From an uncultured Alphaproteobacteria bacterium (lineage in GTDB: Bacteria; Pseudomonadota; Alphaproteobacteria; CAAHEQ01; UBA3637): a stretch of DNA of 49,917 bases. The stretch is taken from assembly GCA_944390205.1 (NCBI GenBank), contig CALXPF010000001.1, positions 1 to 49,917 on the forward strand. Direction: 5' to 3'. This document shows positions 2,685-37,730 of this stretch, piece after piece. The notes under the pieces are model-generated. The model made no database searches. It saw only the letters and a list, made by a program, of their open reading frames with translations, and had not been told where the DNA came from. A program made the translations under genes and the position numbers. The first letter of the stretch is position 1. Every line of letters starts with the position of its first letter.

Positions 2685-2828
2685 TTTTAAATTTTTCTGT
2701 TTTTCAATAAATCCCGTTTGCCCCGAGAAGGAAAAAGATGTTTTTCCGGGTAAAACGGCTTTTCCGTTTTGAACGCTGAACCGATTATCCGTGAAGATAA
2801 TATCGGCAGATACGTCTTTAATTGTATC

Positions 2829-3965
2829 CTATCCGATTTTAAGATTCTGAATCGCCGTTTTTAACGTAAGCTCTTTATTTTTAAAATCTTCGGAAGGCGT
2901 CAACACGAGTTTTTCAAACCGATCAAAAAAAGGAGCCCACAACGCATAATCAATTTGATTAAGGGCCACCCCGCCTTTAAAAACTTCTTGTGTCCCTTGC
3001 AGGGTTCGAGATAAGCTACCCGTCAAAGCAACCGCATCATCACTGTCCCCCAACCGAACGGTAATACTTTTAAGAGCATCCGAAAGCGGTGTTAATTCAA
3101 GACCCAAATTCCCGACGGACGGTTTATTTAAACTCTCATGAATGGTCGGTAATTGAAGCGCACTTAACAAGGTATTCGGGGCAGTTAATGAAAACGATCC
3201 GTCTGCCGTCATAAAGCGGGTCCGATCATCCGGCGTGAAAGCGCCCGTTAAATCCATATTCAAGCCACTTTGTTTTTCTTTTAAGTTTAAAGAAAAATCT
3301 ATCGGTGTATCATTTTTGAGCCGTTTCATATCAAAGGAGGCAAAAATAGTCTGCTTTAACAAATTACCCTGCCCGTTAAAACGATAAGGGCCCTTTAAAG
3401 AATCCAATGATAAATCGCCGTTTATTTTTTCAATCATCATTGAAACACCGGTTATCTCGTTAACATATTCTACCGAACCGTTTTCTATCGTGAGCTGATC
3501 GATTTTTGTCTGATTCACTTGCGTTGTCGTATTCATCAACATATTTTTATCGATCAGATCATCTTGAGCCGAAAAAAACGGGAAATTCCAGTTAGAGCGA
3601 TTATCCGCCAATCGCTCCAAAACAAAATGAGGTTGCTCAACATGAATAGACTTGACGACAAGCGGTGTTTTGAATAAAGATTCCCACTCAATTTGAACCG
3701 AGACGGTCTTTGCCGTCATCATCATCTGACGCGGACTTCCCGTCTGATTGGTTAAACTGACATCAGACAACACAAGTGTCGGCAACGGGAACCATTTAAA
3801 GGACGTGTTTCCTCTGATCGAAAACGTTCGTCCGGTCAATTCGGATACCGTTTGAACGACTTGTTGTTGATAATTTCCGGCATTAAAAGAACGAATAAAG
3901 AAAAACGCGAGACCACCCAAAAGACATAAAACCAGAATAAAAAAAGTAGTTAAAAATTTTTTCAT
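2829..3965 (-). CDS. AsmA-family protein, N-terminal part (membrane anchor plus start of periplasmic domain), ending at TAG in frame with 132..2684
   Basis: N-terminal TM helix 'FLTTFFILVLCLLGGLAFFFI' followed by beta-rich sequence. The SD AAGAGG abuts the first ATG (3971), so the second ATG (3965, MKKFL...) is the likelier start. Stop is TAG at 2829..2831. Confidence 0.6.
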   Translation of the reverse strand: MKKFLTTFFILVLCLLGGLAFFFIRSFNAGNYQQQVVQTVSELTGRTFSIRGNTSFKWFPLPTLVLSDVSLTNQTGSPRQMMMTAKTVSVQIEWESLFKTPLVVKSIHVEQPHFVLERLADNRSNWNFPFFSAQDDLIDKNMLMNTTTQVNQTKIDQLTIENGSVEYVNEITGVSMMIEKINGDLSLDSLKGPYRFNGQGNLLKQTIFASFDMKRLKNDTPIDFSLNLKEKQSGLNMDLTGAFTPDDRTRFMTADGSFSLTAPNTLLSALQLPTIHESLNKPSVGNLGLELTPLSDALKSITVRLGDSDDAVALTGSLSRTLQGTQEVFKGGVALNQIDYALWAPFFDRFEKLVLTPSEDFKNKELTLKTAIQNLKIG

Positions 3966-4086
3966 GCGCATCCTCTTTCAAACTATTTTTTTTACTTATA
4001 GCACACCCCCCCTTTTTTGAAAAGAGTTTTTTTCTCTTTTTTCTGCTTTCTCGACAAAAAAAACTTACATAAAAACAAAAAAATAT

Positions 4087-5547
4087 TTAGGCGTTTTTCT
4101 TCCATAAAAACGGGAAGCAAACAACAATAATGGCGATAAATTCCAAGCGCCCCAACAACATCGCCACGGACAAGATCCATTTGGCCCCCTCGGGAAGTGC
4201 CGCAAAGCTTTGATCCGGACCGATTATATCACCCAGCGCCGGTCCGACATTTGAAATCGCCGTGATAGCTCCCGATAAAGACGTCACAAGATCCAAATCA
4301 TAGAGCGACAATCCCAACGTCGTTAAAACAAGAGTGATAAAGAATAAGCCCAAATACACCAAAACACTCACGACAATTTCATCCGTCACCGGTTTTTCTC
4401 CGTATCTCGGCACAAAAACGCCATGGGGTTGAACATGACTTTTTAATTTTGCCACAATCGTCTTCCCCAAAATGGAAAAACGAAACATTTTTATTCCTCC
4501 CGACGTAGATCCCGTACAAGCCCCCAACGACATGAGGAACAAGAAGAAAACAACCGAAAAAGTTCCCCAATTTTCAAAATTTTCCGTCACAAATCCGGTA
4601 GAAGTCACAACCGAAACGACACTAAACGCCGTAGAGCGAATGACATCATGAATAGATCCCTGAAAAGAAGTTTCATAGAACCGAACACTTGACATAATAA
4701 AAACGGCAGTCAACAAAACAATCAGATATAATTTAATTTGTTCGTTATTTTTAACGGGTCGCCACTGTCTTTTAAACAAATAAAGTCCCAAAATCAACGG
4801 CAATCCCCCGATCACCATAAATATGATTAAAATCCATTCAATGAGGGGGTTTTTAAAATAAGCGATAGAAGCATCATGTGTGGAAAATCCGGCGGTTGAT
4901 AGCGTGCTCATGGCATGATTCACGGAATCAAAAATACCCATTCCGGCTCCCCATAAGCACACGGCACACAAACCGGTCATTCCGACAAAATAAATAATGA
5001 TCGGCCACATGCTTTTAGCAATCGTCGTTGTGTCCCGTTCCGATTCGGCCGATGATTCCGTTGCAAAGAACTGCATTCCGCCGATATGAAGTGTCGGCAA
5101 AATCAAAATAGCCACCATGATAATACCGATTCCGCCCATATACTCGGTTAAAGATCTCCAAAACAACAGCCCCGGAGACATATGATCTAAATTTGTTAGA
5201 ACGGTTGCGCCCGTTGTCGTCAACCCCGAAACAGACTCAAAAAAGGAATCTCCGAATGAGAGCTGATAACCCGAAAAATAAATAGGCAACGCACAAAAAA
5301 AGGAGTATGCGAACCAAACGATTGTTGTCGTTAAAAACATCTCTTTGGTTCGAAGAGGGGTTTTGACCTGATCCGTAATCAGCAAAATAATCGATCCGAC
5401 ACACACGGTGACGGCGGATATAATGGAAAACCGAGAAGCCGAATCATACTGCTTATAAAAAAAATCAACGCCGGCCGGCAATATCATGCTTAAACCACAA
5501 ACAACCGTGATAAACCCAACTATCGAAAAAATCAGTCGAAACCGCAT
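4087..5547 (-). CDS. trkH: Trk-type potassium uptake membrane protein TrkH
   Basis: Polytopic membrane protein with four pore-loop-like motifs: 'GLTTTGATV', 'LSTAGFST', 'VTSTGF', 'TGSTSGGIKMFRF'. ATG 5547 is preceded by GAGGG; the ORF-track start at 5598 is a TTG. Confidence 0.85.
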   Translation of the reverse strand: MRFRLIFSIVGFITVVCGLSMILPAGVDFFYKQYDSASRFSIISAVTVCVGSIILLITDQVKTPLRTKEMFLTTTIVWFAYSFFCALPIYFSGYQLSFGDSFFESVSGLTTTGATVLTNLDHMSPGLLFWRSLTEYMGGIGIIMVAILILPTLHIGGMQFFATESSAESERDTTTIAKSMWPIIIYFVGMTGLCAVCLWGAGMGIFDSVNHAMSTLSTAGFSTHDASIAYFKNPLIEWILIIFMVIGGLPLILGLYLFKRQWRPVKNNEQIKLYLIVLLTAVFIMSSVRFYETSFQGSIHDVIRSTAFSVVSVVTSTGFVTENFENWGTFSVVFFLFLMSLGACTGSTSGGIKMFRFSILGKTIVAKLKSHVQPHGVFVPRYGEKPVTDEIVVSVLVYLGLFFITLVLTTLGLSLYDLDLVTSLSGAITAISNVGPALGDIIGPDQSFAALPEGAKWILSVAMLLGRLEFIAIIVVCFPFLWKKNA

Positions 5548-5656
5548 TATTCCCTCATCTTTTTGGCCTATCTTATTTTTAATTCTTTTAAAATGCAATA
5601 AAAAAGTGTATACCTAAAATAAAGAGAGATGAATGGACGGGAAAACAGGATAAACC

Positions 5657-6322
5657 ATGAAATATTTTGACGCACATATGCACGTTGTTGACGTTAAATT
5701 GATTTATGAGGCTCAGCGAAAAGACGTTAGCACGTTTATTTGCAACGCGACTTCTCAAAAAGATTGGAATGCCGTTTTGAGTCTATCGGATCAGATACCC
5801 GGCGTTTACGCCTGTTTGGGCATCCATCCGTGGTATGTTAATACGGTTTCCGATGATTGGCGATCCCGCTTAGAAGCCTATTTAAAGTATCGTCCCAATC
5901 TAATGATCGGAGAAATCGGATTGGATTTATTAAAACCGGACTTTGAGCGTCAAAAAGAGGTGTTTCGTTCTTCTTTGGAACTTGCGTCACAATACAATCG
6001 AACGGTTCATATTCATTGTGTTAAAGCGTGGGATGCCCTTTTTGAAATTTTATCCGAATTTAAAAATCTCAACTGTCTTTTCCATCGTTTTTCCGGCGAT
6101 GCCGTTGTCGCTCAAAAATTAAGATTTACCAATTCGTTTTTTTCGGTTATGAATAAAAACGTGCTGGATATTCTGCCGGATAATCGTATTTTGGTTGAAT
6201 CGGATTCACCGGACGGCATTCGATCTCCCGCTTTTATTCCGGAACTGGTCGAAAAGCTCCGGTTGGATCCCTCTTATTTGGCTGAGAATTTTGAAGAATT
6301 TATCACACGAATCGGATCATAA
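5657..6322 (+). CDS. tatD: TatD-family metal-dependent hydrolase/DNase
   Basis: 'FDAHMHV', 'GEIGLD', 'VHIHCV', 'LVESDSP' motifs in TatD order; 221 aa. Confidence 0.75.
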   Translation: MKYFDAHMHVVDVKLIYEAQRKDVSTFICNATSQKDWNAVLSLSDQIPGVYACLGIHPWYVNTVSDDWRSRLEAYLKYRPNLMIGEIGLDLLKPDFERQKEVFRSSLELASQYNRTVHIHCVKAWDALFEILSEFKNLNCLFHRFSGDAVVAQKLRFTNSFFSVMNKNVLDILPDNRILVESDSPDGIRSPAFIPELVEKLRLDPSYLAENFEEFITRIGS

Positions 6323-9508: not shown

Positions 9509-10027
9509 CTATATATCACAAAAATTCAAATTGCAAGAATCCGGCGTTTTATAAAATTCAAATGTCATTTCATTTTTTTCTTCGGAACAAGCCTCTGCAA
9601 CGGATATAGCATCCACCCCCGGAATTCCGTCAAAAATGACCTGCTTTCCATTCACGCGAATATAACGAGGCGTTGTCCAATCCGAGTTCAAAACCTGCTC
9701 ACAAACACCTTTTGTCACATCACTCACCGTAAATCCGAAAAAATCGACCCCTACAACCTGATAAGTCGTTAATCCATTTCCATTTCGAATATGATCGGGA
9801 ATACTACTGACATCCAAATCACCCCCTCGAATCATTTGAGAGCTTAAATCCACCACATAGTAATTCAATTCTGCAATTAAATCATTCGCTTTTAATTTAT
9901 TCATTCCCCATTGATATCCGGCAATTCCAACCAAAGACAATACTCCCATGATAACCAAAACACCTAACATTTCCGTCATGGTCCGACCTTGTTCTTCTGC
10001 AAGAGGGTGAGTTTGAAAGTGTTTCAT
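9509..10027 (-). CDS. Orphan type-IV-pilin/pseudopilin-like protein (short paralogue of 34514..36331)
   Basis: Short charged leader, then 'G RTMTEMLGVLVIMGVLSLVGIAGY': Gly, Glu at +5, and a ~20-residue hydrophobic helix. The full length is collinear with residues ~23-185 of the 605-aa ORF, including the C-terminal 'C..N.C[DE]I'. AAGGAG SD; TAG stop. Confidence 0.6.
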   Translation of the reverse strand: MKHFQTHPLAEEQGRTMTEMLGVLVIMGVLSLVGIAGYQWGMNKLKANDLIAELNYYVVDLSSQMIRGGDLDVSSIPDHIRNGNGLTTYQVVGVDFFGFTVSDVTKGVCEQVLNSDWTTPRYIRVNGKQVIFDGIPGVDAISVAEACSEEKNEMTFEFYKTPDSCNLNFCDI

Positions 10028-15564: not shown

Positions 15565-15611
15565 AATGACTATAAACGATTCTACTTTTGTATCATAAAA
15601 AAAGGACTAAA

Positions 15612-17354
15612 ATGAAAAAAGTACTGTTTTGCTTATTATTGATTTTTTCTTCCTTAACCTTACAAGCCGAAGAAATAAAATTGTTTTTAAATCATCCAAA
15701 CTGGCAGCATCCTTATTTATTAAAAAACAACCGTCTTTACAGTGAAGATCGTAAAAACAATGCGGATGTTTTGTTCTATGATGAGAAAACACTGGTCGTC
15801 AAATGGGATCAATACGGGACGGAGTTATTTAAAAAAACAGGAGATTCATTTTCCTTGGGAGATATTGGGGAAAAAACGATTGAAGAAGAGTATCAAAAAC
15901 TGGAATATTCTTTTCAAAATCCCTTTATTTTAGTCAATCCCTATGAAAGAAATCCTTTGGTAGCCCTTATTCGTTTTCCGACAGAACAAGAAGCTAAAAT
16001 CAGTATTCGAATTAAAGGGATCTCACCGGCTCCCGATATTACGCATACGTTTGAGACGTATGAAACCGAACATTTCATTCCTGTTTTAGGTCTTTATCCG
16101 AATTATAAAAACACTGTTGAAATCACCGCATTATATAAAGACGGAACACAAGAGACTGCCACACATACCATCCAAACACAGCCACTTAAAACAAACATCT
16201 TTTATAGGGTGACGGACAAAAAAGACACACAAAATCATTATTATTTCGGAAATGCCGGAGAAAATAATGTTTATGATGAATTCGGATATATTCGTTTTGC
16301 GTTTCAATCTGCTCGATTTACTTATTGGTTTGATGACTACCTAATCAAGGAATTGCCGAGTAAAGGAATTTCCGTCTATAATAAACTCGGTAAATTTATT
16401 CGATTTATTCCTTTTAACGCTTTGGCGGATCAAAAAACATTTAAAAGTTATGAACATGCCGTCTCTCAGATTTCCAAAAATCATCACTTAATTATCGGCA
16501 CCTTACAAAATACCTTTTATCAGGACAGCGACGGTCCTAAAAAAACCGCCTATGATATGATATTGGATCTGGATCAAACGGGAGAAAGAAAAATCTTCGA
16601 CATGGGTCATATTTTGAACCCGTTTCGCAGAGTGGCCTTTAAAATCGAACCGGATGTGTTGGATTGGGCTCACACCAATTCCGTTCGATATCTTCCCCAA
16701 GATCAATCTCTCCTTATTTCACTCAAATACATCGGATTTATTAAAATCGACTATCCTTCCGGACAATTAAAATGGATTGCTGCTCCACACCTTCAATGGG
16801 ATCGCTCTCAAAGAGACGGGACGGGTTCGGCATTAACCGATAAATTACTTACCGCCGTTGATTCTCAAGGGAATCCTCTTCCGGATCCCGTTCAAAAAGG
16901 ATATATTCGGTCTAAAGAATTTATGTGGCCGATCAACAACCATGATGCTCGCTCCCTCGGGAACGGATTATACAGTATCTATTCCAACAACGGATTGATA
17001 TATGACAAAACCGTTCAGACACAAAATAAAAGCGCCGTTTTAATTTATAAAATAGATGAAAACAAAAAAACAATTCAAATGGTTGATTACTATCCGTTAG
17101 ATCATTTGGCTCCGTGGGCGTCCAGTGCTGTTTATATGCCGGAGACAAATGACTTTTTTATCTATAGCGCCAGCATAGAAGATAAAAATCAAAAATACTA
17201 TAACCAACTTCAGCGCGTTGACACACAAACAAAGGAAGTCCTTTTCAGTGCCCTGTTATTTATCCCGCACAATAAGATTGATGGCAGCTACCACTATCAT
17301 ATGTATCCGATTTCATTTTATGAGGGGATGAAAACAGACAAGGTACCGGACTAG
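15612..17354 (+). CDS. Secreted arylsulfotransferase (ASST)-like beta-propeller protein
   Basis: Signal peptide 'MKKVLFCLLLIFSSLTLQA'. 'NPFILVNPYERNPLVALIRFPT...ISIRIKG...HFIPVLGLYPNYKNTVEI' resembles the ASST N-terminal domain. ATG 15612 is preceded by AAAGGA; the ORF-track start is a TTG. Confidence 0.55.
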   Translation: MKKVLFCLLLIFSSLTLQAEEIKLFLNHPNWQHPYLLKNNRLYSEDRKNNADVLFYDEKTLVVKWDQYGTELFKKTGDSFSLGDIGEKTIEEEYQKLEYSFQNPFILVNPYERNPLVALIRFPTEQEAKISIRIKGISPAPDITHTFETYETEHFIPVLGLYPNYKNTVEITALYKDGTQETATHTIQTQPLKTNIFYRVTDKKDTQNHYYFGNAGENNVYDEFGYIRFAFQSARFTYWFDDYLIKELPSKGISVYNKLGKFIRFIPFNALADQKTFKSYEHAVSQISKNHHLIIGTLQNTFYQDSDGPKKTAYDMILDLDQTGERKIFDMGHILNPFRRVAFKIEPDVLDWAHTNSVRYLPQDQSLLISLKYIGFIKIDYPSGQLKWIAAPHLQWDRSQRDGTGSALTDKLLTAVDSQGNPLPDPVQKGYIRSKEFMWPINNHDARSLGNGLYSIYSNNGLIYDKTVQTQNKSAVLIYKIDENKKTIQMVDYYPLDHLAPWASSAVYMPETNDFFIYSASIEDKNQKYYNQLQRVDTQTKEVLFSALLFIPHNKIDGSYHYHMYPISFYEGMKTDKVPD

Positions 17355-17376: not shown

Positions 17377-18375
17377 TTAAAAATTAAAGCTCATATTGAT
17401 TCCGTATCCCAATTGACCGTTTTGTGTCAACATCGGTTGAGAATGGAAAGCCAGAGAAGAATTGATCGGTTTTTCCTCAGGCCAAATCATTTGTGTCACC
17501 TCTGTCATCGGGTCCATTAAAAAGAGTGCCGTTGTCCCAAGTGCTTCAGAGTCCCACAATTCACCGTCATTTTCCAAAATATTTCTTTTTGTGACATAAA
17601 ACCACTCGCCCAATACGGCTCCGCCGACAGGTGTCACGATTAAATCTTGAATGGAGGGACGTTCCGCAAACGACTCAATTCCGTATTCCCAAAAAAATGT
17701 CGATAACGCAAAAGAATACATAAAAGAAGAAAAAGCATTTGCACCGGCCGATCGAGCGCCCATATAATAGATGGCACCGACATAAGGATGTGCAATATAA
17801 TTTAAAAACAGATCGTCTTTATCCCAAACGGGAGCATGAGAAACATTATCCCACCATTTTGAAAACGGGCTCTGTCCATCATCTTCCCAATTTGTAAAAC
17901 TGGAGGGCATCATATATAAAATCGCCATGGTTCCGACACCGGCCCCCACCAAAAGTCCCGTATTTTTAAGTAATAAATCACGATCAATTTGTTGTTCATC
18001 CAACGAATACGGTCTGTCATAGATACTTAAAGAGGAGTTCCCCTCGGTATCGGCAAAAATAAAATCCGAAGGAAGAGAGGTATTCACCTGTTGAGACATA
18101 TAAAAATCGGCTTTTTTTTCAGAAAAAATCTGTTGAGAGAATTTGTTTTCCACCGGCAATTGTTGGTTGGAAGAAGAGCGGATCTCATTATTTTTTTGCA
18201 TCTGTATTTGATACCATGTCTTACAAAAATTAACACCTTGATCTTCCTTTATTTCTGAGAAATCGGCTGGTTGTGACGCCTTTACCACACCGGCATCAAC
18301 CGTCTCACCCCAACAACATCCGATTACAATAAAAGAAAAACCCAAAAAATATCTAATAAATAAACATGGTCTCAT
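17377..18375 (-). CDS. Putative lipoprotein, DUF3943-like
   Basis: Lipobox-like 'FIVIGC'. C-terminal half 'WWDNVSHAPVWDKDDLFLNYIAHPYVGAIYYMGARS...FWEYGIESFAERPSIQDLIVTPVGGAVLGE' resembles my recollection of DUF3943. Confidence 0.45.
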   Translation of the reverse strand: MRPCLFIRYFLGFSFIVIGCCWGETVDAGVVKASQPADFSEIKEDQGVNFCKTWYQIQMQKNNEIRSSSNQQLPVENKFSQQIFSEKKADFYMSQQVNTSLPSDFIFADTEGNSSLSIYDRPYSLDEQQIDRDLLLKNTGLLVGAGVGTMAILYMMPSSFTNWEDDGQSPFSKWWDNVSHAPVWDKDDLFLNYIAHPYVGAIYYMGARSAGANAFSSFMYSFALSTFFWEYGIESFAERPSIQDLIVTPVGGAVLGEWFYVTKRNILENDGELWDSEALGTTALFLMDPMTEVTQMIWPEEKPINSSLAFHSQPMLTQNGQLGYGINMSFNF

Positions 18376-22679: not shown

Positions 22680-24281
22680 TCAAATAAGACTTTTTTGCGG
22701 TAAAACATCCGGATGAGACAACTGCGCCAAAATGAGAATGGTATGAATTACGTCTTGACTGTTGTATGGTTTTTCCAAGCCGGCCTCAAGACGAGCCTCC
22801 CCGCCTTGAAGCGTGTTTATATACTCTTGAGAACACCACAATAAAAACGGAATTTCCGTCATGGGTTTATTCGCCAGCTGGGAATGTCCCAAAATTTTCT
22901 TGGTATCCGTATCGAAAATATCTTCGCCATGGTCACTTAAATACAATAAAAATCTTTCACCCGAAACGGCTTTTAACAGGGTTATCATTTGCGCCAACAC
23001 ATAATCCGTATACCTGATACTGTCATCATAAGCATTTAACAGAGCATGCCCTTCTTTTGAAAGATTTTTTCCGGAAAACGGTTCCTTAAAATGTTTAAAA
23101 GAGGCCGGATACCGATTGGCATATGCGGAATGAGATCCGATCAAATGGACAAAAATAACTTTTTTAAGAACGGTTTGATCCGATAAAACTTTTTGAAAAT
23201 CGGGCAACATATCGCCGTCAAATCCCGTTTTTTCAAATCGTTTCATCCCGCTGAAATTAAATGATTTTTCCCAAGAGGCTTGCTTTGAAACGGCGGTGAT
23301 TAGCGTATCGGACAAAGCATATTGATTTGAAAACCAATATGTTTTAAATCCTGCCTGATTAAAGAACTCCACAATAGACCCTTTTTGATATAAGTATTCG
23401 GGATGTTCGGAATCCATAAACGTCAACACCCGCTCCAAAACCGGCAGGGTCTGAGCAAACGGGGAGATCACGTTTTTAAACGTATAAATTTTTTCTCCCG
23501 TTTTTTTCAAGAACTCATTTGTGTCCCGCGGGTATCCGTACAACGAAAAATGGGATCGATTGGCAGATTCCCCGATAACAATCACATATGTTTCCGGTTC
23601 TTTCGGATCGACTTTTGAAACGATACCTTGAAAAGGAGGCGCTTTTTTCTGATTCACCCAATTTTTCAATTCGGAATACGTTTTATGATACGCATACAAA
23701 TGATAAAAAACGTTACTGTACGGATTTAAAATATAGCCATCTTTAAATTTAAATCCCGTTTTAAATAAATTACGCACAAAAGGAACGGCACAAACGACAC
23801 ACAGGACACCGCCGATTATTTGTTGCATCAAGGATAATTCGAGTGGTTGTAAAAGCAAAAGAAAGACAAGTGGAACCCCCAAAAAAAGAGGGGCTAAAAT
23901 AAACAGAATCGTCGGAACATTTTGGCTCATAAACTCCTTTGTTTCTTTCATATTAGAAACAAATAACGTAAAAAACGTATTTAATCCGATTCGTGTTTTA
24001 AACAGGTAAATATGACTGATTTCAATAAACATGAGCGGGACAAAACAAAAATGGATAAAAAGCATATAGGCCTTTGCAAATGTCGGAAAAACAAACAACG
24101 GAAGAGCCACCAAAAAACAAACCGGAAATGTCCGGACAACATCTTTTAAAAACAATTTAAAAAAGAGAGGATCTTTTAAAGAGGCTTCCGACAAACTCCG
24201 AAAAAACGTATAAAGAAGCGGTAAAAAGCCAATCCATAAAATATATCCGAAACATAAAAATAAATTTGACATAGAGCTCAT
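22680..24281 (-). CDS. Phosphoethanolamine transferase (membrane-anchored sulfatase/alkaline-phosphatase superfamily)
   Basis: N-terminal ~5 TM segments, then 'VIVIGESANRSHFSLYGYPRDTN', 'FVHLIGSHSAY..RYP', 'YDDSIRYTDY', 'SDHGE'. Confidence 0.8.
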   Translation of the reverse strand: MSSMSNLFLCFGYILWIGFLPLLYTFFRSLSEASLKDPLFFKLFLKDVVRTFPVCFLVALPLFVFPTFAKAYMLFIHFCFVPLMFIEISHIYLFKTRIGLNTFFTLFVSNMKETKEFMSQNVPTILFILAPLFLGVPLVFLLLLQPLELSLMQQIIGGVLCVVCAVPFVRNLFKTGFKFKDGYILNPYSNVFYHLYAYHKTYSELKNWVNQKKAPPFQGIVSKVDPKEPETYVIVIGESANRSHFSLYGYPRDTNEFLKKTGEKIYTFKNVISPFAQTLPVLERVLTFMDSEHPEYLYQKGSIVEFFNQAGFKTYWFSNQYALSDTLITAVSKQASWEKSFNFSGMKRFEKTGFDGDMLPDFQKVLSDQTVLKKVIFVHLIGSHSAYANRYPASFKHFKEPFSGKNLSKEGHALLNAYDDSIRYTDYVLAQMITLLKAVSGERFLLYLSDHGEDIFDTDTKKILGHSQLANKPMTEIPFLLWCSQEYINTLQGGEARLEAGLEKPYNSQDVIHTILILAQLSHPDVLPQKSLI

Positions 24282-30417: not shown

Positions 30418-30756
30418 GTGAACTAAAAAGATCATCCCCTCTCATGAGAATATCTCAGCAAAATAACAACGCCTATACGCACAAAAAAATCTGCTTTTTT
30501 CTCATACAAACAAAGCCATTTCTATTTTGAACCCTCTACTCCTCGTTTCAAAACCACTTAATACACCTCACTTCAACTATTCACACCAAACACCTCTTTA
30601 ATCATAAAAAAGAGGCACCTGTCATGTCACAAGTACCTCTCTCGGAATAAAGACTCCGCCACTCAACTCAGCTTGACCGCTTAGCGCCGGACTTGACATC
30701 CATCCAGACAAAAGTCATCTGTTTATGAGATGATCCCTTTTCCGAATGTTGATGGC

Positions 30757-31380
30757 TTAATTTCTCTCCGATCTGAATTGAGTCATCTTTTTTTGTAATG
30801 CCGGATTGCTCTTTGTCTTTCCGAGCAATAAGTTAACAGCTTTAACATCCCCTCGCTCGGAAGCCATCATAAGAGCCGTTTTACCCTCATTGTCCTTAAG
30901 ATTTACATCAGCACCGGCTTTCAAAAGAATTTCTATGGAATCGGTGTATCCGTTAGATACGGCGTCCATTAAAGGCGTCACACCCCGTTTATCTTGCCGA
31001 TTCACATCAGCTCCATGCTCTATAATCGCTTGCACAACTTCGGCATCGTACATAAGAGCATACTCCAAAGCCGTCTTACCAAAGCAATCTACGGCTTTAA
31101 CATCCGCCCCTCGTTCCAACAACGCCGGAACATATTCCTTCACATGCTCACCGCGACGCAATGCCCACATCAACGGGGTCCGTGCTCCCTTATCCCGATA
31201 ATTAACATCCGCCCCTTTCTCAATTAAGTCATCAATCTTTTGAGTGGCAACCGCTCGTTTTTCCGGATGACCGGTCCACACAAACTCAAGCAATCGCTTG
31301 GAATATAAATCTACATATACTTCATACAAGCTTTTTTTTGCTTTATAATCGGGTTCGTTTAATGTTTCATGTTGTTTCAT
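30757..31380 (-). CDS. Ankyrin-repeat protein (about 4 repeats)
   Basis: Repeated 'G.TPLM.A...G....V..LLE.GADVN' units, e.g. 'GARTPLMWALRRGEH', 'GKTALEYALMYDAEVVQAIIEHGADVN', 'GVTPLMDAVSNGYTDSIEILLKAGADVN', 'GKTALMMASERGDVKAVNLLL'. Confidence 0.9.
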   Translation of the reverse strand: MKQHETLNEPDYKAKKSLYEVYVDLYSKRLLEFVWTGHPEKRAVATQKIDDLIEKGADVNYRDKGARTPLMWALRRGEHVKEYVPALLERGADVKAVDCFGKTALEYALMYDAEVVQAIIEHGADVNRQDKRGVTPLMDAVSNGYTDSIEILLKAGADVNLKDNEGKTALMMASERGDVKAVNLLLGKTKSNPALQKKMTQFRSERN

Positions 31381-31673: not shown

Positions 31674-33131
31674 TTATACCGAAATCAATCCGTGTGAAAA
31701 AGCGTAAAGAGCAACGAGAGCCGTCACAATAATAAAAATTGCCAAGGCTTTTTCGGGATCGGAAAAAATCGGCTCTTTCGGCGCATATTCTTTTCGGGCC
31801 AGAATATAGAACGGTATTCCGATTGCAATAAAGACAACAGCCATCAAAAGGTAGCTGAGGCCGGCTGCATAAATTAACCAAACGGCATAAACAGCCCCTA
31901 AAACAGCCGTCATCAAAGCGCTAAATCGACTAATTCCGATACGGGTCGGAAACTCATGATCCTCACAAATTTTCCAAAGATACAAGCACGACATAAAATA
32001 CGCCGGCAAAACCATCACACCCGTAATGGAGAGCATTGTATTCCATGCATTATTGGCAAAATAAACAAAGATCATGGCAATTTGCATTAAAATGCTGGTC
32101 GTCCAAAGAGAGACATTCGGAGATCCGGCCTTGTTCTCCCGTGCAAACACTTTCGGAAAGGATTGATTTTGAGCCATGGCAAAGGGCATTTCCGCAACAA
32201 TCATTGTCCAAGAAAGCCAACTGGCCAAAATAGCAATAATCACACCGACATTCATCAACCAAGCTCCCCAAGGACCGACAATATGTTCCAAAACACCGGC
32301 GGTTGACGGATTGGGAATAGCGGCGAGCTCTGCTCTTGTCATATATCCGAACGGCAAAATAGACAATAAAACATAAATGGCCAAACACCCTAAAAATCCG
32401 ATCAACGTGGCACGCCCGACATCCGACTGACTTTGTGCTCGTCCCGATAACACAACGGCGCCCTCAATACCGATAAAAGCCCATAATGTCACCAACATTG
32501 TGTTTTTCACCTGTGTTTCCAATCCGCCTAATTTATGTTCACTGAGTTTTCCCCAAAAATCAAAATCAAACTGATCCGTGTTAAAAACAGCGCCAACAAT
32601 AATAATGAATAAAACCAACGGAACAATTTTGGCAATCGTTACGACCAAGTTAATAAAAGCTGCTTGCTGAACGCCTCTTAAAACCAAAAAGTTGAAAAAC
32701 CAGATCAAAAAAGACCCACCGATAATGGAGTATAAATTATTTCCGCCCGTAAAAACACCCGGAAAAAAATAATTAAAAGCATCCATGGTAATAACGGCGT
32801 ATCCGACATTTCCGAAGATCTGACAAAGCCAATAACTCCATCCGATATTAAACCCCATGTAGGGGCCGAATCCGGAACGGGCATACATATAAATTCCCGA
32901 CGTTAAATCCGGTTTTGCATTTGATAAGATCCGAAACGTATTTGCAATAAAATACATTCCGAATCCCGTCACCAACCAAGCGATCATAACGGCTCCGGCG
33001 GCGGCACTTTGCGACATGTTTTGAGGCAGAGAAAAAATCCCGCCTCCGATCATTGAACTGACGACAATGGCGGCTAAACCGAATACACCCAATTTATCGC
33101 CCGTTGACATTTGCTTTTTTTGCTCTGCCAT
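31674..33131 (-). CDS. aaxC: APC-superfamily basic amino acid/amine antiporter (ArcD / chlamydial AaxC-like arginine:agmatine exchanger)
   Basis: 'KLGVFGLAAIVVSSMIGGGIFSLPQNMSQSAAAGAVMIAWLVTGFGM...KPDLTSGIYMYARSGFGPYMGFNIGWSYW' follows the ArcD/AaxC N-terminal pattern. ~13 TM segments. ATG 33131 has an AAAGGA SD. Lies directly downstream of the decarboxylase gene. Confidence 0.7.
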   Translation of the reverse strand: MAEQKKQMSTGDKLGVFGLAAIVVSSMIGGGIFSLPQNMSQSAAAGAVMIAWLVTGFGMYFIANTFRILSNAKPDLTSGIYMYARSGFGPYMGFNIGWSYWLCQIFGNVGYAVITMDAFNYFFPGVFTGGNNLYSIIGGSFLIWFFNFLVLRGVQQAAFINLVVTIAKIVPLVLFIIIVGAVFNTDQFDFDFWGKLSEHKLGGLETQVKNTMLVTLWAFIGIEGAVVLSGRAQSQSDVGRATLIGFLGCLAIYVLLSILPFGYMTRAELAAIPNPSTAGVLEHIVGPWGAWLMNVGVIIAILASWLSWTMIVAEMPFAMAQNQSFPKVFARENKAGSPNVSLWTTSILMQIAMIFVYFANNAWNTMLSITGVMVLPAYFMSCLYLWKICEDHEFPTRIGISRFSALMTAVLGAVYAVWLIYAAGLSYLLMAVVFIAIGIPFYILARKEYAPKEPIFSDPEKALAIFIIVTALVALYAFSHGLISV

Positions 33132-33158
33132 GTGATATCCTTTCTCTATAAAAGACAC

Positions 33159-33184
33159 AAAAAGGGAATCCAACCAGATTCCCC
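33159..33184 (-). terminator. Hairpin plus T-run between aaxB and aaxC (internal attenuator/partial terminator candidate)
   Basis: On the - strand: GGGGAATC-TGGTTG-GATTCCC followed by TTTTTGTG. Confidence 0.4.
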
Positions 33185-33198
33185 TTGCCTAACAGCCT

Positions 33199-33786
33199 CT
33201 ATTTTTTGGGAACGGCAACCGGAGCCGTTTCAAAATTCAAAAATCCAAGACACGTTAAAGAATATCCGAAGGCTTGTGTAATATTGACATAATTGTGATA
33301 AAATTGAAAATCACTGTGTTGTTTCACTCCTCGAATATCCAATTCATGATTAAGCGATTTAGTCAACCACATTTCGGCATGTGCTTTTGCAATATCATCA
33401 TCAATAAACGTATCAAAGAACTCTACATACTCAGCAGCCCAACCGCCAATGAACCGACCGGATTTATCTTCACCCCAGACAACACCGACACCGGTTGCGA
33501 TTGCTTTGTGATCTTGTTGCCGTGCTCCATGACCGGCCATAATTACCTCTAATACGGCTCCGTGTTTAAATTGATCTTGAACTTGTTCGACCGGAACAAT
33601 ATTTCCGAACAATTCCGGCGGTAAAACAGACGTATACGGAATTACGTTAAAATCTTGAATTTTCGCTTCCAATAACGCCGAGTCATAACAAAATGTTTCA
33701 AAGGGTTGAGGGGGAATACCGTCTTCCGACAAACCGGCTCCGCCCGTGTGAAACGCTAATGTGGGATATCTTGTTCCTACTTGCAT
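33199..33786 (-). CDS. aaxB: Pyruvoyl-dependent arginine decarboxylase, chlamydial AaxB type
   Basis: 195 aa. '[58 protein letters not shown]', with Thr52-Ser53 at the position of the AaxB self-cleavage site. '[10 protein letters not shown]', '[10 protein letters not shown]'. GGAGG SD 7 nt before ATG 33786; the longer ORF-track N-terminus is non-coding-like. Confidence 0.7.
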
Positions 33787-33941
33787 AATAAACCTCCATA
33801 AAATAAAATTGCACAATTGCAACCAATGGTTGATATAAAATAAAAATACACGCGTTTCAATATATCCTTTAGTTGAAACTCTCTTGATTCGGATCAAAAT
33901 TGATTTTATATCCACAATGCATATTGAAAGGGAGAAAAACA

Positions 33942-34283
33942 ATGAAACATTTATTACTATCCGGCACAATGGCCATCGGGATTATGATGGCAGGTTCGGT
34001 TTCAGCCTCGACCATGTCAACAAGCGGAACCGTCACCGCCACACAAAACGGTGTTTTGGAAATTAAACAAGGAGACGGTGAAGTCAAAACATTCTCCATC
34101 ACACCGGAGACACGCTATCGTCAAAAGAAGATGACAGAGAGCACACAAGCTTCCACCGAAAATGAAACACAAGATGACAGCTATTTTGAACCGATTGTCG
34201 AAGAAGACGAATGGGTTGAAGTATATTATACCCCCAACGGAGACACACTCGTTGTGGAAGATGTCATTATTTATGAAGATTAA
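33942..34283 (+). CDS. Small secreted protein of unknown function
   Basis: Signal peptide '[23 protein letters not shown]'. AAGGGAGAA SD. Acidic C-terminus. Followed by a terminator. Confidence 0.55.
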
Positions 34284-34308
34284 AGAAAAAAACACTTTTA
34301 AGACATTA

Positions 34309-34349
34309 AAGGAAGGGGAGAGCCATTTTTTCTCTCCTTTCTTTTTTTT
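34309..34349 (+). terminator. Intrinsic terminator
   Basis: AAGGAAGGGGAGAG-CCATTTTTT-CTCTCCTTTCTT followed by a T-run. Confidence 0.6.
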
Positions 34350-34365: not shown

Positions 34366-34395
34366 TTGACCTGTTTTTCTAAAAATTATTATAAT
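34366..34395 (+). promoter_or_regulatory. Sigma70-like promoter of the large pilin-like gene
   Basis: TTGACC (34366..34371), 18-nt spacer, TATAAT (34390..34395). Confidence 0.5.
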
Positions 34396-34513: not shown

Positions 34514-36331
34514 ATGCGTATATTTAACCGATTGATTCATTCATTTCACAAAGATCGTTTACAACCCGCTCGTGCCGAATCAGGCCGAACAATGGTTGAA
34601 ATGATCGGTGTCATCGGCTTGATCGGACTGATCAGTATTATCGGTATCGGTGGTTATAACTATGCCTTAAATTCATATCGGGCCAATACCCTTAAAACAG
34701 AAATTAATATGTATGCCGTTGATACGAGTATGCAACTCAAAAAACGAGGATCTAAGGTTTCCTCTCTTCAAGACTTACCGACACAAACCCGATCCGGATA
34801 TCCCATGACAATTCGAGATTCGGATAAATCAAGATTTTTTATTGTTGAAGTAGGATCGATTCGTCCAAGTGTCTGCTCTAAAATTTTTTCCACCGGTTGG
34901 CCTTTGGTGACGGCAATTTCGCTTAACGGGGCTCCCTTGACACAAGATCAAATCGAAAACGGGGCCAATATCGGTGATTTGTGTACGGATGAAAATGCCG
35001 TTGCTCTGGAATTTCATGTTTCATTAAAACCATGCGCCGGAGACAATTGTGAAATTTCTTCCGAAACGGGTGATGGAGGGACAACACCGGAAGAACCGGA
35101 CAATCCGGAAGAACCGCTTCCGGATGGGGAATGTCCGGAGGGACAAGTTTATTATGAAGGCGGATTAACGGCTAAATGCGTGGATGCATGCCCCGGAAAC
35201 AAAGTTATGGGATATGAGGGAAATTGTTATTCCTGTGACAATGTGGTTGTTGATTATGCCGAAAATATAGATTCTGTTTGTTCCAAATGCGGAATGAATT
35301 CATTTTATTCCGAAGAGATTGATTCATATATGTGTTGCCCGACTTCCGCAGGGAGCAATGAAGAAGTCAACCGTCTGTGCGGATATGGCGTGGAAGAAGA
35401 GGATGAACCATGCCCCGGAGAAAACGAGTATCGAGATCTCAACACGGGCGAGTGTGTCGAGGATTCTTGTCCGGCAGGAACGTTTGTGATTGATCGGAAT
35501 GGAACGTGTGCCCCCTGTCCAACCGAAGGCAATCCGATCTCGGATGCTATAAACTCCGATGTGCCGGACACCTGCCGAAAATGCTCAAACGCCGCATTAA
35601 CATCTTCAAATGATGTCGATTTGTGGATTAGCAATCAATTGTATTGCATGTATTGCCCCTCCCCCCGTGTCGTCTGTGGGACTCAGTGTTGTGCGGAAGG
35701 AGAAAAATGCCAAATCAACTTTACAGGCGATCCAATTAACTCGTGGTGGCAATATACATATTCTTGCGTCTCTCAAGGATGTCAGACAGATGCAGACTGT
35801 TCAGGGGATAAACCGAGATGTAATAAGGAAACGGGACAGTGTATGGGCTGTCTGACAAACGCTGATTGCAATAATGGATCAGAAACGGGAGATTATTTCT
35901 GCAACCTATATGGAACAAGGTCCACCCTTTTGAGCTATGGTACATGTGATCCGGCCACACCTACTCACGTTATATCTTCACCCAACGACTATTCCAGTGT
36001 TAACGATCAATCCTATACATATGTTATTTCAGGAAACCTTCTTACTTGGTGGGGTGGAGAAAACTTCTGCAAGGCTCACGGGATGAGTTTAGCGCCCATT
36101 TATGATTTTTGTGATGAAAACACCGAATATGGGAATACCGTTTCCACATCTTCATATGTTCCGGATGGCGATGGAAAACTTTTGACATGTTGGGAAACGG
36201 GAATTATACCTTTTTGTGCTGGTAATGGATGTAGAACCGGCACAAGGCGCGGCCAAGGCTCTAATTATGTAATCGGACAATATACTCAAGTCATACAACT
36301 TGCCGAACCCCATCCCGTTATCTGTCGATAA
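34514..36331 (+). CDS. Type-IV-pilin-like protein with a long C-terminal cysteine-rich repeat region and a C-type-lectin-like end module (putative adhesin)
   Basis: 'SG RTMVEMIGVIGLIGLISIIGIGGY' class-III-signal-like N-terminus. Residues ~23-185 are paralogous to ORF 9509..10027. Then an acidic/Pro linker, then ~38 Cys in CxxC / C..CP patterns. The end module runs 'YTYVISGNLLTWWGGENFCKAHGMSLAPIYDFC...PHPVICR'. AAGGGGA SD. Confidence 0.65.
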   Translation: MRIFNRLIHSFHKDRLQPARAESGRTMVEMIGVIGLIGLISIIGIGGYNYALNSYRANTLKTEINMYAVDTSMQLKKRGSKVSSLQDLPTQTRSGYPMTIRDSDKSRFFIVEVGSIRPSVCSKIFSTGWPLVTAISLNGAPLTQDQIENGANIGDLCTDENAVALEFHVSLKPCAGDNCEISSETGDGGTTPEEPDNPEEPLPDGECPEGQVYYEGGLTAKCVDACPGNKVMGYEGNCYSCDNVVVDYAENIDSVCSKCGMNSFYSEEIDSYMCCPTSAGSNEEVNRLCGYGVEEEDEPCPGENEYRDLNTGECVEDSCPAGTFVIDRNGTCAPCPTEGNPISDAINSDVPDTCRKCSNAALTSSNDVDLWISNQLYCMYCPSPRVVCGTQCCAEGEKCQINFTGDPINSWWQYTYSCVSQGCQTDADCSGDKPRCNKETGQCMGCLTNADCNNGSETGDYFCNLYGTRSTLLSYGTCDPATPTHVISSPNDYSSVNDQSYTYVISGNLLTWWGGENFCKAHGMSLAPIYDFCDENTEYGNTVSTSSYVPDGDGKLLTCWETGIIPFCAGNGCRTGTRRGQGSNYVIGQYTQVIQLAEPHPVICR

Positions 36332-36357
36332 GGCCCTATCATTTATCAAAAAGGAAA

Positions 36358-36382
36358 GAGAGATCATCGGCGATGATCTCTC
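36358..36382 (+). terminator. Perfect 11-bp hairpin downstream of the pilin-like gene (no T-run on the + strand)
   Basis: GAGAGATCATC-GGC-GATGATCTCTC. Confidence 0.35.
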
Positions 36383-36629
36383 GTAAAGATAGGTGATTGC
36401 CGTCTAAAAGCGCCTAGCTTTTCTACAACATCACAGCACACAAATGTTTTGAGCAAAAACAATCTTTGTCAAAACACAAAAAATATCTATTGAAAGGATC
36501 CTTTATAAAAATACGGATACAATTAACTTAAATATCTTGTCTTATGCCTCAATTACATAAAAAATTTCATCTATATCCATTTCGATAAAAACTCTTGATT
36601 TTCTCCGCTTTTTAGGGCAAACTCATCTC

Positions 36630-37730
36630 ATGAAAAATAAATATTTTTTAAAACGTCTTCTCCTCATTCCGATCACCCTTTTCGGAATTATGGCTCTTAA
36701 TTTTTTATTCGCTCAACTGGCACCGGGCGGTCTGGTAGAGCAAATGATGATTCGTTTGGAGACAGGACAACCCTTAGACGCAACCGCTCGTTTTTCCGGA
36801 ACAACCGCCGGCGATATTGCCACCGGATCACAACAAGAAATTTCTTCTTCGTACCGCGGGGCTCAAGGTCTCAGAGAAGAACTCAGAAAGGAATTGGAAA
36901 AACAATTCGGTTTTGATCAACCGGCGTGGAAACGCTTTTTTATCATGATGAAAAATTATCTGTTATTCGATTTCGGAACCAGTTTCTATCAAGATAAAAA
37001 AGTAATTGATCTAATCTTAGAAAAAATGCCCGTTTCTATTTCTCTCGGGGTGTTAAGTACCCTTTTAATCTATTTGATTGCCATTCCGCTCGGAATTCGA
37101 AAAGCCGTCAAACAAGGGTCTGCTTTTGACGTCACAACCAGTTGGATTTTGACAATCGGTTATGCCATTCCCTCTTTTTTATTTGCTATTTTTTTAATCA
37201 TTGTTTTTGCCGGCGGGAGATATTTGGATTGGTTTCCATTAAAAGGTCTTGTCTCGGATAACTGGGAAACATTTTCGTCTTTCCATAAAATAACCGATTT
37301 TTTGTGGCATATGACCCTCCCCGTGATTGCCCTGACAGTCGGCGGTCTTGCCGGATTAACCTTTTTAACCAAAAACGCTTTCTTAGAGGAGCTCAGTAAA
37401 CAATACTGCAAAACCGCCAAAGCAAAAGGGGTTTCCGTAAATGGTATTTTATACGGCCATGTTTTTCGAAACGCCATGCTGATTGTTATAGCCGGCTTTC
37501 CGGCCATGCTGATCGGCATGTTGTTTACCGGCTCCGTCTTAATAGAAGTGATTTTTTCTTTAGACGGCCTCGGCCTGCTCGGTTTTGAAGCCGTCCAAAA
37601 CAGAGATTATCCCGTCGTATTCGGAACGCTTTATTTATTTGCACTTTTAGGATTGGTTTTAAACTTAATCAGTGACTTTATGTATACGCTCGTAGATCCG
37701 CGCATTCATTTTGATAAAAGGATGTCCTAA
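36630..37730 (+). CDS. yejB: ABC peptide/microcin-C-type importer permease (YejB-like)
   Basis: 366 aa, DppB/OppB-like topology with a long periplasmic loop after TM1. Conserved EAA-type region 'AKAKGVSVNGILYGHVFRNA'. Confidence 0.7.
   Translation: MKNKYFLKRLLLIPITLFGIMALNFLFAQLAPGGLVEQMMIRLETGQPLDATARFSGTTAGDIATGSQQEISSSYRGAQGLREELRKELEKQFGFDQPAWKRFFIMMKNYLLFDFGTSFYQDKKVIDLILEKMPVSISLGVLSTLLIYLIAIPLGIRKAVKQGSAFDVTTSWILTIGYAIPSFLFAIFLIIVFAGGRYLDWFPLKGLVSDNWETFSSFHKITDFLWHMTLPVIALTVGGLAGLTFLTKNAFLEELSKQYCKTAKAKGVSVNGILYGHVFRNAMLIVIAGFPAMLIGMLFTGSVLIEVIFSLDGLGLLGFEAVQNRDYPVVFGTLYLFALLGLVLNLISDFMYTLVDPRIHFDKRMS

Follow-up and report, generated by a model that had tools for sequence, protein, structure and literature searches.

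What might a bacterial protein do that begins like a prepilin and ends like a C-type lectin? This is the question raised by an open reading frame (ORF) of 605 codons located at 34514..36331 on the forward (+) strand of a 49,917-bp stretch of DNA from an uncultured Alphaproteobacteria bacterium (assembly GCA_944390205.1, contig CALXPF010000001.1, positions 1 to 49,917), hereafter referred to as the window. The reading frame was confirmed to be intact. The gene probably codes for a modular minor pilin of a type IVb pilus, that is, for a tip adhesin with a cysteine-rich stalk and a lectin-like head. An earlier examination of the DNA letters (the original prediction) had proposed a pilin with a lectin head as a host-binding fibre subunit or tip adhesin. 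An adhesive head on a pilin, probably located at the tip of the fibre, stays the best reading, and both the pilin module and the relationship of the other end of the protein to C-type-lectin-like domains (CTLDs) found support. The parts of the protein, and a small paralogue encoded elsewhere in the window, are as follows.

34514..34585, +: leader, residues 1-24, bearing a class III (prepilin-type) signal, with putative cleavage after its last residue, Gly24
34586..35068, +: pilin module, residues 25-185, with a long N-terminal helix, a four-stranded sheet and the cysteine pairs Cys121/Cys157 and Cys174/Cys179
35069..35128, +: linker GDGGTTPEEPDNPEEPLPDG, residues 186-205, rich in acidic residues and proline; the C-region model begins here, with a predicted local distance difference test (pLDDT) score below 50
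35129..35953, +: cysteine-rich stalk, residues 206-480, with 32 Cys, mostly short β-hairpins, model pLDDT 57-92
35954..36331, +: C-terminal C-type-lectin-like module, residues 481-605 and stop codon, WWGGENFC...ICR, with a conserved first half and a divergent second half
9509..10027, -: pilin-only paralogue, 172 aa, with a GRTM.EM signal and the same cysteine pattern as the 605-aa protein

Pilin module and prepilin-type signal

The AlphaFold model of the pilin module, which is a prediction built on a shallow alignment of 31 sequences and not a solved structure, has a mean pLDDT of 87.6 and consists of a 54-residue helix (residues 8-61) and a four-stranded sheet. When the model was compared with the PDB using Foldseek, all of the top 15 matches were to type IVb pilins, namely CofA of enterotoxigenic Escherichia coli (ETEC) and its filament, TcpA of Vibrio cholerae and PilS of Salmonella Typhi, with E-values from 4.8e-4 and TM-scores of 0.45-0.58. 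Cys121 and Cys157 are invariant across the family described below, which fits the usual pilin disulfide. The annotated type 4b major pilin of an E. coli plasmid gives tblastn matches to family members down to an E-value of 2e-13 and aligns with the family profile in hhalign with an E-value of 7.6e-4. No Pfam match to PilS (PF08805) or Bundlin (PF05307) was found for the 605-aa protein or the 172-aa paralogue. Judging by the model confidence and the uniformly type IVb matches, the N-terminus is a predicted type IVb-like pilin module, which is more than a membrane anchor, as had been proposed. The claimed collinearity of the N-terminal region with the 172-aa ORF was borne out as well: BLASTP aligns residues 17-181 with the paralogue at 32% identity over 169 aa (E 2e-26), up to the shared C..N.C[DE]I end. 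The paralogue itself is a candidate fibre subunit or a further minor pilin.

The leader of the 605-aa protein is MRIFNRLIHSFHKDRLQPARAESG and is followed by RTMVEMIGVIGLIGLISIIGIGGY, which places Gly24 at position -1, Arg25 at +1 and Glu29 at +5, with the hydrophobic maximum at residues 27-45. Translation thus reproduced every element described beforehand, including the charged leader, the glycine, the unusual arginine, the glutamate and the hydrophobic helix. The leader length of 24 residues is within the range known for type IVb pilins (15-30 residues), and HMMER places the leader region in register with the N-termini of geopilin and TcpA. Among 102 distinct N-termini of family members, Gly is found at -1 in all 102, Arg at +1 in 101, Ser or Thr at +2 in 102, Met at +3 in 101 and Glu at +5 in 102. 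These N-termini were picked by a profile of the globular part of the module from which the signal had been left out, with the caveat that the loci themselves had been fetched by the pattern GR[ST]M[VT]EMLG, so that the central gene of each locus was preselected. The best 150 matches of an exhaustive profile search nearly all start with E[ST]G-RSMVEMLGVLAIIGVLSIGGIAGY, with Arg at +1 in 145 out of 148. A text search of the literature returned no occurrence of the signal motif strings. The invariance of Gly at -1 and of the membrane-buried Glu at +5, together with the complete pilin fold, argues that processing and polymerisation are under selection.

Stalk and head of the extended region

The region following the pilin module was originally described as an acidic, proline-rich linker and then about 420 aa with some 38 cysteines; the linker was placed at residues 186-205, and the exact count in residues 186-605 is indeed 38, with 42 Cys in the whole protein. 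The stalk comprises two CP..C..CP..C..C hairpin units, CxxC pairs and one C.TD.DC...C...G.C..C unit, and residues 206-295 are found only in the 605-aa protein and in a relative with 77% identity which keeps the entire architecture. The model of the C-region (residues 186-605), which rests on a shallow alignment of 57 sequences, has a mean pLDDT of 72.8 and is made up mainly of short β-hairpins.

The whole 605-aa protein has no Pfam match at E<=1 and no NCBIfam match. Its 57 relatives show only scattered ones: EB, Dickkopf_N and teneurin-type EGF in Pfam, and, in five of them, the NCBIfam model Myxo_Cys_RPT (TIGR04201), which does not reach the 605-aa protein. The cysteine pattern had been likened to furin-like, GCC2-GCC3 or VSP-type repeats. 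None of these families has a Pfam match in the 605-aa protein at that threshold or among the 57 relatives, so this label is unsupported; 'disulfide-rich hairpin stalk' is a fair description, and 'eukaryote-like' refers to the overall look of the region and not to demonstrated ancestry.

The head is better characterized through the family than through the single protein. A profile of 54 family members compared with the PDB yields 60 matches, all of them CTLDs, the best being PLA2R (E 1.4e-7, several domains summed), mosGCTL-1 (E 4.7e-5), for which the match spans the whole domain (profile positions 11-113), and botrocetin (E 2.8e-4). In a Foldseek search with the head model, about 40 of the top 50 matches are CTLDs, each of them individually weak (E 0.1-0.7, TM-score normalized by target 0.3-0.54). 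A profile constructed without the 605-aa protein and its closest relative still matches the protein at 37.5 bits, at residues 494-539 only, and Pfam Lectin_C (PF00059) has no match in the 605-aa protein or the 57 relatives. The end module is thus predicted, at the level of the family profile, to be related to C-type lectin-like domains. The suggestion of a C-type-lectin end stands for the family, whose profile matches nothing else in the PDB, but in the 605-aa protein only the stretch just mentioned is recognizable; likewise, the structural check of residues 186-605 that had been recommended returned the hairpins and the CTLD fold matches, but the latter are weak and no Pfam family accompanies them.

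A CTLD-like domain is carried by 49 of 125 family ORFs (about 40%), and some family members carry EGF-like inserts. Small proteins consisting of a Sec signal and just a CTLD-like domain, 139-149 aa in length, were observed in related genomes (loci L093, L085, L107 and L110), so the head module also exists there outside pilins. Other members, very rich in cysteine, have a different C-terminal module, '..DG.YC[VI]L[KN]' (L009 9938-11887, L011 9947-11884, L043 3924-8852); these proteins have 64 Cys in about 650 aa or, at the extreme, 112 or more Cys in a protein of at least 1642 aa, and their ending appears to be a second head class.

Family size and distribution

The protein is not a one-off fusion but a member of a family numbering in the thousands. 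The exhaustive profile search, which covered 1.84 billion representatives, found 5721 clusters (50% identity) at E<=1e-3 and 3361 at E<=1e-10. Word-indexed homologue searches were nearly empty, with nine matches for the 605-aa protein and none but itself for the 172-aa paralogue, so that the size of the family is visible only by exhaustive profile search. At least 570 family loci are present in species-representative genomes, nearly all of them metagenome-assembled genomes (MAGs) of uncultured Alphaproteobacteria, obtained from the guts of humans, sheep, deer, buffalo and rabbits, and at least 447 further loci are present in metagenome contigs.

In 1.25 Mb of related loci there are 121 family ORFs, which range from 120 to more than 1640 aa and contain up to 112 Cys. 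They often stand in tandem, and in places short pilin-only genes are clustered, for example in the clusters of four genes coding for proteins of 120-193 aa in L082 (15995-18173) and L144 (5829-8114). The former stands among unrelated genes and the latter directly follows a platform gene; these short pilins are candidates for fibre-forming major pilins. At least eight copies were counted in GCA_949286245.1 and about 15 in the MAG SIG53.

GCA_949286245.1, also deposited as 'uncultured Alphaproteobacteria bacterium', is the nearest available genome, with 89-95% nucleotide identity over the shared region, and it harbors an intact orthologue of the 605-aa gene that is 94.5% identical. In its locus L002 the homology with the window ends exactly at 36331, the stop codon of the 605-aa gene. 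Directly downstream in L002 (11818-12577) there is a second GRTM-type pilin paralogue (P0003-like), and the window passes at 36331-36630 into an oligopeptide ABC permease operon instead. L002 also possesses two extra genes (2812-5889; 423 and 484 aa, no Pfam match) between the metallophosphoesterase and ankyrin-repeat genes, which are missing from the window at 30617-30690.

Assembly genes in related genomes

As originally stated, no pilus or type II secretion gene is present in the window, according to Pfam scans of the window ORFs and to tblastn. A first tblastn search with E. coli Hof and Gsp proteins against the 1.25 Mb of related loci found no machinery either, which was rated as weak evidence of absence, and the machinery turned up in a later scan of metagenome contigs. 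The metagenomic contig L144 carries, in this order, genes for PAP_PilO, a 306-aa protein, a T2SSE ATPase and a T2SSF platform, and directly behind them four GRSM pilin genes; three of the four pilins were scanned, and all three match Pfam PilS, one of them matching Bundlin as well. In L033, a gut MAG, genes coding for a TcpQ-domain protein, a secretin and PilO are located 5.4 kb from a family gene.

Homologues of the secretin form 589 clusters at 63-91% identity, and the loci of five such homologues all show the same operon, four of them in gut MAG or metagenome contigs of other organisms. Another secretin homologue, P0186, is probably encoded on the contig that carries the CTLD-bearing relative P0007, as the contigs recorded for the two have an equal length of 196,327 bp. 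The operon encodes first a protein of about 325-460 aa, then the TcpQ-domain protein, the secretin and PilO, next a second protein, about 300-340 aa in length, and finally an unusually long ATPase (769-1019 aa, with a low-complexity N-terminal extension) and the T2SSF platform. In GCA_949286245.1 it is found on contig 19 (CASECF010000019.1; L180 6797-18194, with P0196 as the secretin). The operon is also present at L168, L170, L173, L174 and L177, and homologues P0183, P0200 and P0177 occur in other MAGs. The gene order is the same as in the annotated type 4b operon of an E. coli plasmid, the ATPase is 37% identical to BfpD, and one secretin homologue is annotated as 'PilN family type IVB pilus formation outer membrane protein'. 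No pilin gene lies inside the operon loci. Wherever the upstream flank is available, it contains a divergent small PF04956 (TrbC/VirB2-like) gene; a response regulator and histidine kinase pair is found beside the operon in several loci, and ComEC a few kb downstream of it in L180.

The ATPase and platform that were to be searched for are thus encoded in GCA_949286245.1, together with the secretin, the TcpQ-like protein and PilO, but an A24 prepilin peptidase was seen only as a fragment with the GAGDVKM motif at the edge of the related metagenomic contig L129, beside yqeY-dnaG-rpoD; this contig also carries a family gene. The pilin reading is not refuted by absence of the fibre-building operon, which is present in the very genome that carries the 94.5% orthologue.

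The same gene order can be read in another way, namely that the protein is the recognition adhesin of an R64-like thin pilus serving mating or bacterial contact, with heads that bind glycans on the surface of partner cells and not host tissue. The R64/IncI-type arrangement of the operon, the PilO accessory protein, the PilN-family name given to one secretin homologue, the divergent TrbC-like gene upstream and ComEC downstream in L180 are all consistent with it. Alternative C-termini of PilV alter binding specificity, and the presence of many alternative C-termini on one pilin module mirrors this shufflon logic. The operon, however, stands amid housekeeping genes in varied chromosomal contexts and is conserved at 63-91% over hundreds of clusters, which is more in keeping with a core trait than with a conjugative element, and no relaxase or other transfer genes were found among the examined operon flanks. 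We consider this reading unlikely; it is to be noted that this explanation differs from the best one in the target alone.

Proposed function and alternative explanations

Returning to the tip adhesin, its working could be as follows. The precursor would enter the inner membrane via its hydrophobic N-terminal helix, and an A24 prepilin peptidase would cleave it after Gly24, leaving Arg25 as the new N-terminus, while the stalk and head would acquire their fold, with as many as 21 disulfides, in the periplasm. The fibre itself would be assembled from the small pilin-only paralogues by the type IVb machinery, which comprises the TcpQ-like protein, a PilN-type secretin, PilO, a PilP-like protein, the long ATPase and the platform. 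Due to the bulk of its approximately 420 extra residues, the subunit would most likely enter first and end up at the tip, like CofB, TcpB and R64 PilV. There the stalk would present the compact C-type-lectin-like head to a surface ligand, which may belong to host mucus, a gut eukaryote or another microbe.

Since the genome's many paralogues combine one pilin module with varied heads, they suggest a repertoire of interchangeable adhesive tips. A broader proposal can be made tentatively, and is rather doubtful at present: the family as a whole may form a hitherto unrecognised pilus-tip display system, in which one conserved type IVb machine would serve tens of modular pilins per genome, encoded at dispersed sites and each transcribed on its own. 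These would all carry a private Gly|Arg signal, and each would present a different disulfide-rich head (CTLD-like, EGF-like and others). If this were true, the Gly|Arg signal would imply a peptidase of altered specificity, the cell could change the binding of its pilus or evade immunity by switching the paralogue, and the system would parallel, at the level of a gene family, the R64 shufflon and the variant surface proteins of eukaryotes.

Several observations weigh against the tip-adhesin reading. Known pilins have Phe, Met, Leu, Val, Ile, Tyr or Trp at +1, from which Arg25 departs, and we know of no prepilin peptidase shown to cut Gly|Arg; should this cleavage be real, the known specificity of these enzymes would be widened. 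The 605-aa protein has no match to N_methyl (PF07963) or TIGR02532, and the 172-aa paralogue remains below the thresholds of both (12.0 bits vs. a cut-off of 21.2 and 14.9 vs. 16.3, respectively) as well as of the PpdD-like model, the evident reason being Arg at +1. Neither the window nor the operon loci nor the examined parts of GCA_949286245.1 yielded an A24 peptidase. The second half of the lectin-like module is divergent and lineage-specific, with pLDDT below 50 at residues 537-547, and both residues 481-605 and the family consensus lack the EPN/QPD and WND motifs and thus give no indication of carbohydrate binding. The 605-aa gene adjoins no pilus gene, and clustering of all ORFs of the family loci revealed no conserved non-family neighbour. 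Finally, the window and GCA_949286245.1 represent close relatives but different assemblies.

Part of this would be accounted for if the protein were derived from a pilin and never polymerised, its helix serving as an inner-membrane anchor or a bindosome-like handle and its cysteine-rich part being periplasmic or exposed at the cell surface. There is a precedent in sugar-binding proteins of archaea that bear class III signals, and such a role agrees with the non-canonical Arg at +1, with curated prepilin models scoring below threshold, with the solitary position of the gene at a distance from pilus genes, and with the dozens of large paralogues per genome where type IVb systems usually have a single minor pilin. 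A bare anchor, on the other hand, would not hold Gly at -1 and the buried Glu at +5 invariant across the family, nor would it retain the full pilin fold with its disulfide. Short pilins with the same signal stand directly behind the ATPase and platform genes in L144, and a purely periplasmic location would be hard to reconcile with lectin-like and EGF-like modules. This explanation is therefore regarded as improbable. That the gene is a decaying or non-functional copy in a fast-turnover family, kept in the strain by chance, as could be thought from the divergent second half of the lectin-like module and from neighbouring gene content that varies between close strains, is highly improbable given the 605 intact codons preceded by a good ribosome-binding site, the even number of cysteines (42), the intact orthologue in the sister genome and the 77% relative with the full architecture.

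Comparison with known systems

The architecture was believed to be undescribed, which turned out to be incorrect. Modular pilins were defined by Raynaud et al. in 2021, who listed more than 1,200 proteins with 264 architectures, lectin modules included, and in Dataset S1 of that work the combination of a pilin with a C-type lectin (IPR012902-IPR001304) is entered three times (PMC8179133). Modular pilins act as adhesins (PMC8179133). The 605-aa protein has the composition by which they are defined, with a pilin at residues 25-185, a linker at 186-205 and a CTLD-like module that also exists as stand-alone secreted proteins. It resembles Streptococcus sanguinis PilB (vWA) and PilC (ConA-like lectin), in which a short linker likewise connects the small pilin module with a bulky module for ligand binding that is displayed on the fibre (PMC8179133; PMC9934059). 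Unlike these, its pilin module is of type IVb with Arg at +1 and is missed by the IPR012902/N_methyl signature behind the census of Raynaud et al., a long disulfide-rich stalk is placed between pilin and head, and there are many copies per genome compared to two modular pilins in S. sanguinis.

Among type IVb systems, the closest parallels are CofB of ETEC CFA/III, TcpB of Vibrio cholerae and PilV of R64 and Salmonella. They share the type IVb machine with the same order of TcpQ-like protein, secretin, PilO, ATPase and platform, and, likewise, a large pilin with extra C-terminal domains that presumably initiates assembly and occupies the tip (CofB is described in PMC8179133). The difference is that each of those systems has one minor pilin encoded in the operon, whereas here the family is scattered over the chromosome in tens of copies and variation is provided by paralogues and not, as in the PilV system, by a shufflon. 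The extra domains of CofB are a β-repeat and a β-sandwich in contrast to the cysteine-rich stalk and CTLD-like module found here.

The head has in common with other CTLDs (mosGCTL-1, PLA2R, botrocetin; intimin/invasin) the opening W..A..FC..G..L.s, a WIGL-like Trp, the closing aLCe and the Cys1-Cys4 pair; it differs from canonical ones in its short long-loop region and in the lack of EPN/QPD or WND and of a Lectin_C match. The stalk, for its part, resembles that of Myxococcus TraA/Myxo_Cys_RPT proteins, in which C..D.DC...C...G.C..C repeats form a stalk under the variable recognition domain of a polymorphic surface protein. TraA, however, is not a pilin but an outer-membrane protein sorted as a lipoprotein, and its head is a PA14 domain.

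What is new, then, is the near-invariant Arg at +1, the disulfide-rich stalk, the dispersal of the pilin genes away from the operon and the extent to which the family has expanded in an uncultured lineage of the gut. As Arg at +1 breaks the prepilin signature, the family goes unseen by standard annotation and its relatives are almost unnamed, and surveys of pilins and modular pilins consequently overlook thousands of proteins. The largest visible gene family of this lineage appears to be one of pilus-borne adhesins, which gives a function-level handle on a widespread group of gut bacteria without a cultured member. The heads are candidate binders of host or microbial glycans and proteins and could explain how these bacteria are retained in the gut.

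Flanking signals and gene neighbourhood

The ATG of the 605-aa ORF is preceded by a candidate ribosome-binding site, GGGGA. The gene had been described as monocistronic, with its own promoter and hairpins on both sides, and the corresponding sites are the following.

34308..34344, +: terminator-like hairpin with a T-run, a 15-pair stem followed by TTTTTTGCTT, -19.2 kcal/mol, z -2.4
34366..34395, +: sigma-70-like promoter candidate TTGACC-18-TATAAT, matching 11 of 12 consensus positions, about 118 nt 5' of the ATG
36358..36382, no strand assigned: palindromic hairpin with a perfect 12-bp stem, 27 nt past the stop codon, z -4.4

The first hairpin ends the upstream 113-aa gene, which makes the pilin gene transcriptionally separate. 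TTGACC-18-TATAAT can only be called a promoter candidate, as promoter-like sites in the AT-rich spacer are not more numerous than in shuffled sequences (5 vs. 6.7 expected). The downstream hairpin lacks a U-tract on the + strand. Hence, the sites are present as described.

Two mechanisms of variation were considered for the gene. An invertible promoter is unsupported: the inverted repeats near the promoter are only AT-rich ones overlapping the -35 and -10 boxes, and there is no recombinase nearby. The gene being a target of a diversity-generating retroelement was rejected: no part of it recurs elsewhere in the window, so that a template repeat is lacking, and none of the window genes codes for a reverse transcriptase.

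Otherwise the window has the look of an ordinary chromosome, with genes for UvrD, LolCDE, DnaE, RecA, AlaRS, Ffh, TrmD and an oligopeptide ABC transporter. Just upstream of the pilin gene there is a gene coding for an ankyrin-repeat protein (30757-31380, -), and a pyruvoyl-dependent arginine decarboxylase is encoded together with an amino-acid permease at 31674-33969 (-). The ankyrin and arginine decarboxylase genes are eukaryote-like and acid-resistance-type features, respectively, which fit a host-associated life in the gut. The window also encodes an arylsulfotransferase (15588-17354, +), a DUF3943 protein (17377-18375, -) and a sulfatase (22680-24281, -), and these three may be linked to sulfated host glycans.

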